Source: Eledone cirrhosa
Lineage: Eukaryota
DNA length: 64,000 bases
Assembly (NCBI GenBank): GCA_964016885.1
Contig: OZ024749.1
Span: forward strand, 44,454,001-44,518,000
Direction: 5' to 3'
Part shown: positions 505 to 55,023 of the stretch, in pieces
Position numbering within the stretch: the first letter of the stretch is position 1
Layout: every line of letters starts with the position of its first letter
The notes under the pieces: generated by a model
Told to the model about the DNA's origin: nothing
Seen by the model: the letters and a program-made list of their open reading frames with translations, nothing else
The model's database searches: none
Position numbers and translations under genes: made by a program

Positions 505-694
505 TAATAGGAAAATGTTCAAGACCCCGACGGCAGAGCTCAAGCCGTTTCGACGGCTATTTCTAGACGTCTAAACGGCTTGTACTCTGTCGTCGGGGTC
601 TTGAACATTTTCCTATTACCCACTCTACTACCCTAAGTACTTTCTACTCTGCTGCATTATGGTCCACATGGTTCCTTACCACACTTCCTTCGTT
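505..694 (+). mobile_element. Hairpin family A copy 1: long inverted repeat plus ~75-bp tail, between (TA)n tracts
   Basis: ATAGGAAAATGTTCAAGACCCCGACGG...GTCGGGGTCTTGAACATTTTCCTAT hairpin, then tail TACCCACTCTACTACCCTAAG...CCTTCGTT shared with 6 other copies in the window. Confidence 0.85.
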
Positions 695-1509
695 TTATAT
701 ATATATATATATATATATATATATATATATATATATATATATATATATATATATATATATATATATATATATATATATATATATATATATATATATATAT
801 ATATATATATATATATATATATATAGAGAGAGAGAGAGAGAGAGAGTTGTGAAGGATAGTGACTGGTTGTAAAAAGAGGGATTAATAAAATATAGGTTTA
901 CGGAGGAAAGGAAATTGGAAATTAGTGATAAATAATCAACGGTAATGTGATACAGGGGAGGAAGGTAGAAGAGAGTAGAGGGGAGAGGATGATAGATGGA
1001 CTAGGGAAAGGGGGAGGGATAAAGAGTGGGAGAAAGTGTATTGGGTGAAGGGAGTGTTTGGGCTCTTACGATGTGGTATACATTACAAACCATATATATA
1101 TAAGTAAATGTGTGTATATATATATATATATACACATATATATACGTCTATATATATATATATATATATATACATACTTACTGTATATATATATATATAT
1201 ATATATATGTATATATATATATATATATATATATATACATATATATATATATATATATACATATATATATATATACATACACACACACATAAATATATAT
1301 ATATATATATATATACATACACACACACACACACATATATATATACATACACACACACATAAATATATATATATAAATACATATACACACATATACACAC
1401 ACACACACACACACATATATATATATATAAAAATATATATATATATATATATATATATATATATATATATATATATATATATATATATATACGCGTGTGT
1501 GTGTTAATA

Positions 1510-1660
1510 GAGCTCCGTCGGTTACTGTGATGAGTGTCCCAGTTTAACTTAGTTCACAAGGTGAAATAAAGTTTATTGCTCAATGGAGATAACGAACGCG
1601 ACCGCTGGAATCGAACTTTTGACCTTAGTATCGTATGTCAGGCACTCTAATCAATAGATA
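1510..1660 (-). mobile_element. Degenerate tRNA-derived SINE (family 2-like)
   Basis: Minus strand has B-box GTTCGATTCC followed by ...TTGAGCAATAAACTTTATTTCAC, similar to the 57123 copy. Confidence 0.55.
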
Positions 1661-2757
1661 TATATTAAATTTCTTCATATGTTTGTGCCTGTGTATATGT
1701 ATGTATGTTTAATCCAGCAATCGACCAATAATGGTGTAAATCAAAAGTAAGCAGTTCACGACCTTTTAGGTATTACCTATATTGTATCAACCAGAGTGTC
1801 AATATAACAACAGAGAAAAGAGGCGGTATTACGTATATATATCTTTAATTTATTACATAATCCTGTTATGCACATTTCAAAGTGTTTGAAATATGTGTGT
1901 GTGTAGAGAGAGAGAGAGGGAGAGAGAGAGAGAGAGAGAGAGAGAGAGAGAGATCAGATATATATATATATATATATAGAGAGAGAGAGAGAGAGAGAGT
2001 GTGAGGGATGATATATATATATATATATATATATATATATATAGAGAGAGAGAGAGAGAGAGAGAGAGAGAGAGAGAGAGAGAGGGGGGGGGCGGGGGAG
2101 AGATATTGTGTGTGTAAATGTATACAGAATGGCTAGATAGTAATAATGCTTTCATTGAAATAATGAGTTTCCGTGTTCGGATTTTATCTTATCCTCGACC
2201 TCTGCTACAAATATCCCTGGGTCGACGGAAATTACTTTGTGTCCTGTTTGATAAGCTGTACTTGTTATACAAACACATAACACGGTCCCACATTCTGCCA
2301 TCTAAAACTCTTTGATAGATACGTTGTTAAGTTCACGCATGTTGTTTCGGAATACTCAACCATTTACATGTTAATTCAGCAAATATCTTGTCCCGTCGTC
2401 CAAACAAGTAGAAGAATCACCATCTAAAACGTTGGAGGTCCGTATATCTCCCATATATACAAGTGTGTGTGTCTGTATGTGTCTGTGTGTATTTGTATCT
2501 GTCTGTGTATATGTGTACATATTTATATTTTGAGGAACTAATAATTACATGCATACGTACATACAGTCATGTACACCAACACAAGCATGTATACACATAC
2601 TCATAGACACATACATATATACTTACATATATATATTCATATATACATACATATATACTTATATACATACACACACACTCTCACACTCTCTCTCTCTCTC
2701 ACACACACACTTACACACACACACACACATATATATATATTCACACATATATACATA

Positions 2758-2950
2758 GCTCGATTCTCGGACCAGGCGATGCGTTATGTCCTTGAGCAAG
2801 ACATTTTATTTCACGTTTCTCCTTCTACCTGGAGTTGCGACCACGTTTCTCCTTCTACCTGGAGTTGCGACCGATAGATAGTATTAGCAATTGGAAAGAC
2901 CAACGGAAACATTGTTCCCTTCGGTCCGATTTGACGAAAGTTGATCGTTC
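2758..2950 (+). mobile_element. 5'-truncated tRNA-derived SINE family 2 with internal 30-bp tandem duplication
   Basis: Near-identical to 57180-57340; CACGTTTCTCCTTCTACCTGGAGTTGCGAC occurs at 2812-2841 and 2842-2871. Confidence 0.85.
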
Positions 2951-3719
2951 CTATACATAGATACATACTTATATAATTACATACATACATACGTACATAC
3001 ATAAGCACATATATACTTACGTACATACATAAGCACATACATACATACATATATACATGCATACATATATACATGCATACATACATATATACATACTTAC
3101 ATACATATATACATACATAAATACATACATACTTACATCTATACATGCATACATATATCCATACTTACATACATACATACACACACACACCCATCTATCT
3201 ATCTATCCATACATCCATCCATCCATACATACATACACACATACATACATACATACATCTATATATACATACTTATTCATACATACACACACACATCCAT
3301 CCATACATGCAAACTCACATACAGACACATACATCCATACATACATATACACATAGATATATACATATTATCCCATATTTACAAATGGCCTCCGAACTTA
3401 TGAAGATTTCGAGTGAGCTGTAATCGTAGTTCACTGATTAACTCTCGCGTGTCTTTCCAACGTAACTGATATGATGATTTCAATCTACATATTTATATTT
3501 TTATTTATTTTATATATTTATTCATCTGTTTATTTATTTATACATTTCTACACTTATTTGTTTTTACATCCGATTTGTTTTGTTTTGTTTTATTATTATT
3601 ATTTTTGTTTGCTTGTTTCGTTCGACTCGCTCTGCGGTCTACAAGCTTAACTGGGTTCGTAAATGAGGCAAAATTGGTCGAGGGATGTTGTTGTGTGGCT
3701 GGGAGCATTAAAATCAAAA

Positions 3720-53553: not shown

Positions 53554-54200
53554 CCCTCAAAAAAGATTTGCCCTAGATGCGTGCGTCACGAAGAAACCGT
53601 GGCGCACGCATTGGTGCAATGTCCGGGCGTGGCTGATCTGTGGGGCTACGCCGAACAACTGCTGTCGCGGGTGGCGCCGATTAAATTGACAGCCGAGTCC
53701 GTGATGACAATCAAACCGCCTCCCCTCTTCACAAAGGAAGCAAAGGCGGTTTTTCTGTGCGTAATAGCCATGTTGAAAGAGGTTGTTTGGTGGACACGAT
53801 TGAAAGGTCTGAGGTCAGGCAACTTCCTCTCTGGCCATAGTCTGGTCTACTTCTTCCGATATCACTTCGGAAGAAGGATAAGAATGGAGAGAGAGGTGCT
53901 TGGCCACAGGCAGTTTTATGAAAGGTGGGTGATAGTGGCGAGAATGGCTCGTGTAAATGGGCCTTCTCTGTATACCATCCTGTAGGTAAAGAAGTAAAGG
54001 AGAGGGGAGCACCTTCTCCATGTGCTCCCCGGGCAAAGGATTGCACACTTTTTCGGGGGTGTGTGCAACCCCCATCACGTCCCCTCCCTTTTGAGGTTAT
54101 TTTCGATTATTTTCATGTTACACCCTTTTTACTCGATTATATGTAAACTCCCCCTTTGTATTTGTCCCTTCTTTTTATGCCTTTATGGTAAATAAAGAAA
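53554..54200 (+). mobile_element. 5'-truncated L1/Tx1-type LINE: ORF2 C-terminus (to 53985) plus 3' UTR, inserted in (CTAT)n
   Basis: CPRC-x-EETVAHALVQC CCHC zinc-knuckle motif, uninterrupted frame to stop 53985, AATAAA at 54191, (CTAT)n on both sides. Confidence 0.85.
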
Positions 54201-54353
54201 TCTATCTATCTATCTATCTATCTATCTATCTATCTATCTATCTGTATATATATATATATATATATATATATATATATATATATATATGAAGAGAGAAGAA
54301 ACATTTAGATATAATTAGTAATAAAATGTATCATACCTAAACTGCTCCTAGAT

Positions 54354-54443
54354 TCCTCGACTACGTAGTTTCGTGGCATAAACAAAAACAATACATCATA
54401 AAGATATAGAGTCCCTGCGAGGTCTGCCGACTTATCAAGAGGA
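54354..54443 (-). ncRNA. Hammerhead motif with U3-A8 core and long stem II insert
   Basis: Minus strand: TCCTC TTGATAA GTCGGCA...(46 nt)...TGCCAC GAA ACTACGTAGT C GAGGA; perfect 10-nt palindromic stem III and GUC site. Confidence 0.65.
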
Positions 54444-54803
54444 TACCTCATTTTACTAGTCTCAAGAACGCGTCTTCACGACGTGAGAAAGAATCCCAAA
54501 AGGCGGTTGGGGAGATAGTCACGCGATATAACGGTCGAGAAACAGAGCTAAGCCTCTTATAACCCCGAAGAAAATACCACGGAGGCGGAGGGGGTATTCA
54601 TATCTATATATACCTATATATGTGTATGTGAGTATATATATATATATGTGTGTGTCAGTTTGTCTATCAATCTTGTACATACATCCATACCTACTTACAC
54701 ACTCCTTCCAATATATATACAGTTATACAAACATTCAATCTCAATATGAATACATATATACATGCGCACATGAACTACGGGTATGCATATAATATATATA
54801 TAT

Positions 54804-55023
54804 AACGAAGGAAATGTGGTAAGGAACCAGATGGGCCATAACGCACCAAAGTACTCAATACTTAGGGTAGTAGAGTGGGTAATAGGAATGAGTAGGACCC
54901 CGACGGCTGAGCTCAAGTCGTTTCGACGGCTAATTCTTGACCCAAATTCTGGACCAACTTCTGGTCCACAATTAGCCGTCGAAACGGCTTGAGCTCAGCC
55001 GTCGGGTTCCTACTCGTTCGTAT
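54804..55023 (-). mobile_element. Hairpin family A copy 7
   Basis: Tail plus hairpin 54882-55023; loop with short (TTCTGGACC-like) triplication. Confidence 0.9.

Follow-up and report, generated by a model that had tools for sequence, protein, structure and literature searches.

Head-to-head hairpins of Eledone cirrhosa as likely stubs of a Penelope-like retrotransposon with a U3-A8 hammerhead motif

Penelope-like elements (PLEs) that encode an endonuclease (EN+) insert as a recognizable unit, in which a partial tandem forms a pseudo-long terminal repeat (pLTR), an inverted 5'-truncated copy lies at the 5' end, a tail is usually present at one end and a microsatellite serves as the target (Craig et al., 2021, PMC8557442). 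In the lizard element Poseidon PAc of Anolis, the tail is the sequence between two internal start sites of the reverse transcriptase (RT), and both target strands are extended (Frangieh et al., 2024, PMC11167929). The role of hammerhead ribozymes in EN+ PLEs has been called unclear (PMC8557442), and a circular template has been proposed (Cervera and De la Pena, 2014, PMC4209133). We analysed 64,000 nucleotides (nt) of the Eledone cirrhosa genome (contig OZ024749.1 of assembly GCA_964016885.1, positions 44,454,001 to 44,518,000 of the forward strand; hereafter the window), in which an original prediction made from the letters alone had described seven hairpins resembling a palindromized hammerhead ribozyme. 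All seven are present (Table 1). Very probably they represent, in its shortest head-to-head form, the insertion of an autonomous Penelope-like retrotransposon whose protein has Hydra-clade motifs, and were probably formed anew at each (TA)n tract by the joining of two cDNAs.

The inverted 5'-truncated partner and the one-sided tail of the hairpins conform to the usual PLE arrangement (PMC8557442), and the pLTR and microsatellite target are shared as well. In Eledone, however, the tail is 77 nt instead of 30-40 nt, most loci are stubs of ~200 bp, and truncation points pile up at two fixed edges, whereas those of the published EN+ PLEs are spread out. Poseidon PAc also has two RT start sites bounding its tail, an AT-rich target and a hammerhead in its pLTR, but it belongs to another clade and has a shorter tail; its cleavage was dispensable in vitro and no RNA-seq ends were found at the cut site, whereas in Eledone genomic copies end there (PMC11167929). 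The PLE hammerheads of Cervera and De la Pena (PMC4209133) share a long stem II with G10.1-C11.1 and a palindromic loop III, and some form pairs on opposite strands 100-700 bp apart, likewise here. The Eledone motif differs from them in its stem III of 5-6 bp, so that a monomer fold is predicted, and in a 35-40-nt extension of stem II that contains a putative transcription start site. The Cercyon PLEs of Schistosoma show the same U3-A8 core covariation, with ~1,300 hits there (PMC4209133). Non-LTR retrozymes (bioRxiv 10.64898/2026.07.22.740005) are, like the window copies, short, non-coding, PLE-derived and made of type I hammerhead sequence; theirs are head-to-tail tandems with a complete ribozyme in each unit, whereas in the window copies the orientation is head-to-head, the core is missing and nothing points to independent propagation.

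Published precedents exist for the PLE layout, for how the tail arises, for the traits of the clade and for the U3-A8 core. The count of one-sided tails, the stop at TYAGTY inside stem II and the class of copies that end at the cut site go beyond the published work found. In a literature search that left most subscription papers and Repbase/Dfam uncovered, no report was found of the family itself, of insertions whose ends coincide with the cut of a PLE hammerhead, of a start site lying within the motif or of tail-asymmetry counts. Table S1 of PMC8557442 lists an octopus element, Hydra-1_Obim, of 2,507 bp at (TA)n; the present family may already have a name, and its core variant may already be noted in that paper.

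The parent element and its hammerhead motif

Positions are numbered from the G of GAAAC as 0. The predicted cut then falls after +22, the tail-less end (site A, CCTAT) at +42 and the tail end (site B, TTCGT) at +119 of the repeated unit. Read in the same direction as the hammerhead half, its sequence is AGTCCAG...GCCGTC-GAAAC-stem III-GTC-GGGGTC...CCTAT, followed by the 77-nt tail and (TA)n. Each hairpin consists of this unit and, head to head with it, an inverted tail-less copy, the CCTAT end of which adjoins (TA)n. The arm sequence originally reported, AATTAGCCGTC-GAA-ACGGCT-TGAGCTC-AGCCGT-C-GGGGTC, was borne out, as were its match to the 3' half of a type I hammerhead and the absence of CTGANGA from all copies. 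On both strands of the seven window copies, neither CTGANGA nor TTGANAA was found; the window hairpins lack a catalytic core. The quoted outer arms do pair within each copy, but their variation consists of subfamily markers and is not copy-specific; the shared tail at (TA)n, put at ~75 bp, measures 77 nt. An Rfam search of the window gave no match.

The genome (2,996 Mb) was sampled by BLAST in 120 evenly spaced 10-kb stretches (1.2 Mb; the even sample). Within the first 60 of these, one locus (L069) had the same two ends enclosing 2.7 kb with RT and endonuclease frames, in the order inverted tail-less end, RT/endonuclease open reading frame (ORF), 1.16-kb 3' untranslated region (UTR), arm, tail and (TA)n. 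A search with its RT region, which found relatives at 99% identity over the query, supplied a set of 30 RT-anchored loci. In 9 of the 30 the 3' UTR, hammerhead and tail stood directly before the ORF, as a pLTR in partial tandem, and the tail continued into the 5' UTR in tandem copies; an inverted partner lay at most 1.5 kb upstream in 22. Arm and tail together are the 3' end (pLTR) of ORF-bearing copies, and the long copies share the inverted tail-less partner. The linkage to PLE RT/GIY-YIG frames that had been anticipated was found, and the source is Penelope-like; the hairpins are not, however, the separate non-autonomous family envisaged, arm and tail being the 3' end of the ORF-bearing copies themselves. 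No relatives of the parent ORF were found in the window.

One copy (L166) has an intact ORF of 721 amino acids, 94 nt after the tail. Its motifs are YRDD and, with their positions, RLRWR at 35 (R in place of K), SDKTG at 116 and CNCPDRSIC at 572, followed in the C-terminal part by a GIY-YIG-like IY...YIG, CNLCSEE at 670 and CKH at 698; the GIY-YIG segment, IYQCNVRTDTSNKAYIG, has a single cysteine, so there is no CCHH cysteine pair. One ORF with RT and GIY-YIG, a pLTR in partial tandem, an inverted 5'-truncated copy and a one-sided tail identify an EN+ Penelope-like element by its motifs. With the Hydra clade (PMC8557442) the parent shares a C-terminal GIY-YIG, an RWK-like motif (here RWR), DKT, a CxCx5C linker, CxxC and CxH around E and N, the lack of the CCHH pair and a (TA)n target. 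It departs from the clade's description in its unit of ~3.55 kb, as against generally <3 kb, and in its U3-A8 core where canonical hammerheads are reported. The Neptune and Nematis clades (CX2-5CxxC linker, CCHH, DKG) were rejected on account of the CxCx5C linker, DKT and the missing CCHH pair. We file the parent as Hydra-like and not as a proven member. The clade assignment derives from motifs and not from a tree. Pfam and PDB sequence searches with the ORF and an Rfam search with the parent hammerhead motif gave no match; all three negatives weigh against the overall interpretation.

The parent ORF has 2,009 relatives at E<=1e-30, mostly unnamed. Relatives were present in 22 of the 120 evenly spaced stretches (L061-L120, L251-L310), mostly at 30-58% protein identity, and Hydra-like elements are therefore a major repeat class of this genome. 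An ORF running through the tail was considered and rejected: in the young subfamily one reading frame stays open over 47 codons, yet in tandem copies it does not match the frame of the ATG (by eye). Among the sequencing runs listed as containing the sequence, none was from RNA. Four of six runs aligned with L166 consisted of contigs, which cannot reveal transcription starts; they have loose ends at 546 and 626 that run into (AT)n like the assembly. The best-matching run possibly comes from the assembly's own sample, and depth does not measure copy number.

The parent's sequence on the upstream side of the unit is ACCCC-TTGAGAA-GATCGGCTATT...AATTAGCCGTC-GAAAC. The predicted lowest-energy fold (L069, L166) is a hammerhead three-way junction, and the A15.1-U16.1 pair has a predicted probability of 0.50-0.84 in three subfamilies. 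The features of a type I hammerhead are all found: three stems, the 3-8 pair, G5 A6 N7, A9, GAAA, A15.1-U16.1 and H17. We conclude that the parent retains a complete U3-A8 type I hammerhead motif (UUGANAA), for which self-cleavage after GUC is a prediction from sequence. A genome-wide search with a pattern that accepted either pyrimidine at position 3 and either purine at position 8 gave 6,417 complete-motif matches, and a control pattern gave 0. Among 100 of the 6,417 that were listed and read by eye, there were 0 C3-G8, 2 U3/G8, ~21 C3/A8 and, for the remainder, U3-A8. The cores of 43 distinct complete motifs were TTGAGAA (25), TTGATAA (6), TTGAAAA (5), TTGACAA (3), CTGAGAA (3) and TTGAAGA (1); N7 is free, all four bases occurring there. 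In the older subfamily TTGANAA stood in 85 of 100 rows listed from 136 matches, and the 4 rows with CTGANGA were junctions (by eye). Its stem II carries compensatory changes, from CGGCTA/TAGCCG to CAGCTA/TAGCTG and from ATTT/AAAT to AGAT/ATCT (by eye).

These results leave two parts of the original prediction unsupported. Erasure of the catalytic strand by a template switch between stems I and II is contradicted by the 6,417 matches that keep the whole motif; the stubs stop 3' of the core, which lies upstream, so the strand was not erased. Nor is a CUGANGA ancestor supported, since young and old subfamilies both have UUGANAA. A search for CTGANGA 6-36 nt from GAAAC gave 68 matches, of which the 30 inspected were hairpin junctions, chance matches or captured foreign sequence, and its range is shorter than the 54-56-nt spacer of the real motif. 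Because the parent core is UUGANAA, the refutation test attached to the prediction, the lack of a CTGANGA relative, would have misfired; ribozyme scans confined to CUGANGA miss >6,000 complete motifs in this genome. No activity measurements for a U3-A8 core were found in the literature searched. Rare core variants reduce the rate of cleavage (PMC7151607).

Proposed coupled starts and the probable origin of the hairpins

The even sample contained 26 head-to-head pairs, 1-2 of which may be chance neighbours, and 21 single arms, 47 loci in all, which extrapolates to ~117,000 loci genome-wide (order 10^5). With 7 copies in 64 kb, the window is ~3 times as dense as the genome average. One-tailed hairpins of 114-146 nt numbered 15,720, compared with 207 tail-less and 186 two-tailed ones (~98% one-sided); these are exact matches to patterns of 20-22 letters, and some of the symmetric ones are unrelated repeats. 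Were the start site chosen independently at each end, 50% of hairpins would be symmetric. The two primings are therefore coupled. A diagnostic 7-mer was the same in both arms of 61 of 82 hairpins (all sampled loci), compared with a shuffled mean of 9.4 and maximum of 20 in 10,000 shuffles. Rare variants were seen 56 times on one arm only and 9 times on both; since they are mostly on one arm, the match between arms dates from insertion and not from later correction, and arm-to-arm gene conversion was rejected on these counts. One-sided tails and concordant arms constrain how such inverted repeats form, pointing to two coupled start sites on one template. Weighing against a single template, arms were discordant in 21 of the 82 hairpins (~4 between known subfamily types), and concordance may partly reflect a succession in which one subfamily is active at a time.

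We propose that the RT-endonuclease nicks both (TA)n strands and that priming takes place at the two sites, A (CCTAT, +42) and B (TTCGT, +119). With their starts thus separated by 77 nt, two cDNAs, probably from one RNA, would each run off that RNA at its 5' end and be joined. Their free ends may be trimmed, given untemplated bases or jump to other RNAs, before end joining, often at microhomology. A dimer has been predicted for the lizard Poseidon protein. The tail end adjoined TATA in 74 of 91 hairpins. In the hairpin at L002:1500-1780 another ~80 nt of 5' UTR lies between the usual tail and the microsatellite, which suggests an occasional third start site.

Could a single cDNA account for the same structures? 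One that started at the tail, folded back and primed its own second strand, ending at CCTAT, would yield near-perfect arm concordance and a strictly one-sided tail, but its tail-less arm should never exceed the tailed arm in the 5' direction. The longer arm is the tailed or the tail-less one, depending on the copy: the tail-less arm reaches -211 versus -33 in L091, -22 versus -14 in L080 and -22 versus -12 in L260, and a short tailed arm stands opposite an ORF-long tail-less arm in L151, L156 and L158. Later deletion could explain small differences, hardly kilobases, and we regard such snap-back as improbable.

Less credible still is a non-autonomous hairpin family that was palindromized once and has since spread as a unit, like a miniature inverted-repeat transposable element (MITE) or through RNA, perhaps being cut in trans. 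Its very high copy number and narrow size range would fit, and L001-L030 are indeed alike, though they were chosen for likeness to one copy. The junction cores parsed from 30 loci were, however, all different (27/27), so that the hairpin is made anew at each insertion; junctions recur in different subfamilies, arm lengths run continuously from 20 nt to >2 kb and up to ORF-bearing copies, and subfamily markers are common to the long parents. Nor does the catalytic strand have predicted access to the hairpin, its predicted binding being 0.0 kcal/mol to a hairpin copy versus -12.6 kcal/mol to an unpaired mRNA 5' end; the suggested trans-cleavage of the hairpin fails on this figure. Of the suggestion that hairpins either spread as such or refold at each insertion, formation anew is upheld and spread as a unit is not. 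A MITE or terminal-inverted-repeat element was rejected in addition because the tail lies outside the repeat on one side and the partner encodes RT; a target-site duplication is not readable inside (TA)n. For annotation, ~10^5 MITE-like hairpins can be assigned to one retrotransposon as its stubs, which were very probably inactive from the time of insertion.

Two edges of the arms and the RNAs they may record

The first edge lies near -18. The even sample contributed 73 arms, of which 5 reached beyond -25 and 0 ended between -24 and -32. Among 100 listed arms reaching -15, found with a pattern that excluded C at the last place, 22 were long and 78 ended between -15 and -23; 51 of those 78 ended at or just past -18, often with added A/T runs (by eye). 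Position -18 is the A of TTAGTC/TCAGTC in the young subfamilies and of TTAGTT/TCAGTT in the old. This TYAGTY lies inside stem II and was kept at -18 in both, although the upstream loops diverged. It resembles the invertebrate initiator, TCAGTY. Penelope itself has an internal promoter with an initiator (Inr) and a downstream promoter element (DPE) (PMC2377424). The base before -18 in 42 short arms was G in 9 and A in 2, versus G in 11 and A in 24 at -13 to -15 (Fisher p = 0.005), and a copied cap gives an extra G (PMC3287187). The pattern in these genomic copies suggests that the edge is probably the capped 5' end of an mRNA started at the initiator-like TYAGTY. A 3' splice site (TTTAG/TCCAG) was rejected as the cause, many arms extending past it.

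Several observations weigh against a capped end. About half of the extra-G cases are readable as G from the other arm, the T/C cases (31/42) are indistinguishable from templated bases, and the edge is blurred, from -11 to -23. The RT-anchored copies that run back through an upstream hammerhead (9/30) all pass -18 without stopping; because a linear mRNA capped at -18 cannot template copies passing -18, a second type of template is needed. The free passage of these 9 long copies would also suit a different cause, in which the polymerase, copying the same parent, stalls or folds back at the distal stem II hairpin, and mini-hairpins arise from a stall at the GGGG run/stem III or from later palindrome deletion. 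The -18 edge does lie on the 3' strand of the predicted distal hairpin, and microhomology is present at many junctions, but the enzyme would already have gone through the stronger stems III and II, and TYAGTY and the edge persist through the change of loop sequence from old to young subfamilies. We consider stalling a possible but unlikely cause; the capped end is preferred.

Some arms that end near -18 continue into other retroelement sequence (L112:9310-9586, L035, L053, L047, L056): what follows is a piece of the element's own ORF (L112), another PLE's endonuclease in antisense, LINE-like RT or a second hairpin, L035 being a case of another PLE. These continuations are likely template jumps at an RNA end.

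The second edge lies at the predicted GUC cut. A very-short-hairpin pattern had 1,089 genomic matches. Of 30 such loci parsed by script, 13 had both arms ending at the scissile bond or 1 nt short of it, with 1-16 nt of filler; the other 17 comprised 1 blunt join, 15 that turned elsewhere (mostly at the stem III palindrome) and 1 that was not a pair. A second pattern, allowing arms up to 3 nt shorter, had 269 matches, of which 100 were listed and read by eye: 42 had filler, 29 were blunt, 8 were blunt and 1 nt short, 13 had GTC/GAC on one arm and 8 were of other kinds. The class, to which window copy 8666-8780 belongs, is ~2% of the size of the main class, a few hundred copies. Very probably its members are copies of self-cleaved RNA, so that genomic insertions would report cleavage in vivo.

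Structure-guided joins do occur, ~45 of 100 listed among the 1,089 matches turning at the stem III palindrome (by eye), as stalling would have it. A stall at the foot of stem III would, however, copy C17 first and end at +1 relative to the cut, 1 nt further, whereas both arms of the mini-hairpins end at 0, and untemplated filler is not explained by microhomology deletion. Other points tell against copying of a cut RNA. The 29 blunt rows may be joins at the CG overlap and not cut ends, an explanation that does not hold for the filler rows. Despite its C3/A8 mismatch, one subfamily (~21 of the 100 listed motifs; L173, L189, L190) has spread, and cleavage was dispensable in vitro for the lizard element (PMC11167929); on both grounds cleavage may be dispensable. 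The marker CGAGTAG, which includes the C3/A8 subfamily, was found in 2 of 13 cut-site loci versus 8 of 15 others, a weak hint that cleavage differs by subfamily.

If copying of self-cleaved RNA is the correct reading, the ribozyme cut in the germline and the cut RNA was reverse-transcribed, rare evidence of PLE hammerhead cleavage in a living animal; the cut-site stubs would then be a likely fossil record of it. The C3/A8 subfamily offers a natural control for the cleavage requirement, and intact ORF copies, near-identical relatives and two sharp edges make both edge readings directly testable.

Three templates would account for the range of copies under the two-cDNA scheme. On an mRNA whose 5' end starts at TYAGTY, both cDNAs would stop near -18, and the common, core-less hairpin would result. 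On the 3' self-cleavage product, both would end at the scissile bond and give a mini-hairpin. A template continuing upstream, either uncut read-through RNA or a circle, would give long elements with inverted repeats. Among the inverted partners of RT-anchored copies (n=22), 0 ended near -18, 1 ended at the cut site and 21 beyond -70. Strong-stop cDNA followed by independent jumps was rejected as the source of the long copies, since it predicts short partners.

A further scheme is offered tentatively, and we hold it to be doubtful. The promoter would start transcription inside the element's own hammerhead, leaving the substrate half at the 5' end of the mRNA and a whole ribozyme at the 3' end. 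The 3' end would cut itself, the catalytic strand would cut the 5' end, and ligation of the two ends would give a unit-length circle; circles, having no end, would template long, partial-tandem, replication-competent copies, and capped or cut linear RNAs only dead stubs. The modelled binding energies given above make trans-cleavage of the mRNA's own 5' end plausible. Were the scheme true, the ribozyme would be a switch between productive and abortive retrotransposition, and the classes of stubs a genomic ledger of three RNA states.

Features of the window

Table 1. Hairpin copies and neighbouring features in the 64-kb window
Feature	Position	Strand	Details
Hairpin	505-693	+	Tail-less arm 568 to 505, minus strand, from -17; joined to tailed arm 564-693
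Mini-hairpin, cut-site class	8666-8780	-	20-nt arms only; the first base of tail-less arm 8761-8780 is precisely the one that follows the predicted GUC cleavage site; tailed arm ends 3 nt before the predicted cut site; single filler T at 8760
Hairpin, older subfamily (GGCCGGAGCTC)	9269-9449	+	Tailed arm begins AGTTC, -18
Best-preserved hairpin	16958-17162	-	Tailed arm reaching 17096 and tail-less arm at 17102-17162, separated by short A/T filler; each stops at about -18/-19
77-nt tail	16958-17034	-	In full-length copies, the sequence between pLTR end and 5' UTR, bounded by the two putative RT start sites
3' half of hammerhead motif, without UUGANAA core	17102-17162	+	Stem II 3' strand, GAAA, stem III with GAGCTC loop, GUC site, stem I 3' strand
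Hairpin, older subfamily	38210-38420	+	Embedded in (GA)n/(TA)n
Hairpin, older subfamily	50608-50779	-	Internal deletion in tail-less arm
Hairpin	54805-55023	-	~25 nt of filler, copied again in short pieces from the arm end
Canonical CTGANGA type I hammerhead-like motif, other family	17497-17535	+	
Canonical CTGANGA type I hammerhead-like motif, other family	42426-42390	-	
Canonical CTGANGA type I hammerhead-like motif, other family	51195-51240	+	One family with 41498-41453; TATATA stem III
Canonical CTGANGA type I hammerhead-like motif, other family	41498-41453	-	One family with 51195-51240; TATATA stem III
Second abundant family, long perfect hairpin	35301-35559		
Second family, fragments	7043-7180, 7511-7880, 13982-14169, 25711-25885, 34916-35051, 42709-42899		
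Unrelated hairpins beside (TA)n	41228-41380, 41727-41877, 8933-9246, 17377-17407		
Unrelated hairpin beside (TA)n	55036-55118		Directly adjoins hairpin copy 54805-55023

Relatives of two of the four canonical CTGANGA motifs are joined to the 5' edge of the element in L031, L041, L058 and L045. The long perfect hairpin of the second abundant family possibly arose by the same twin-insertion process in another element.

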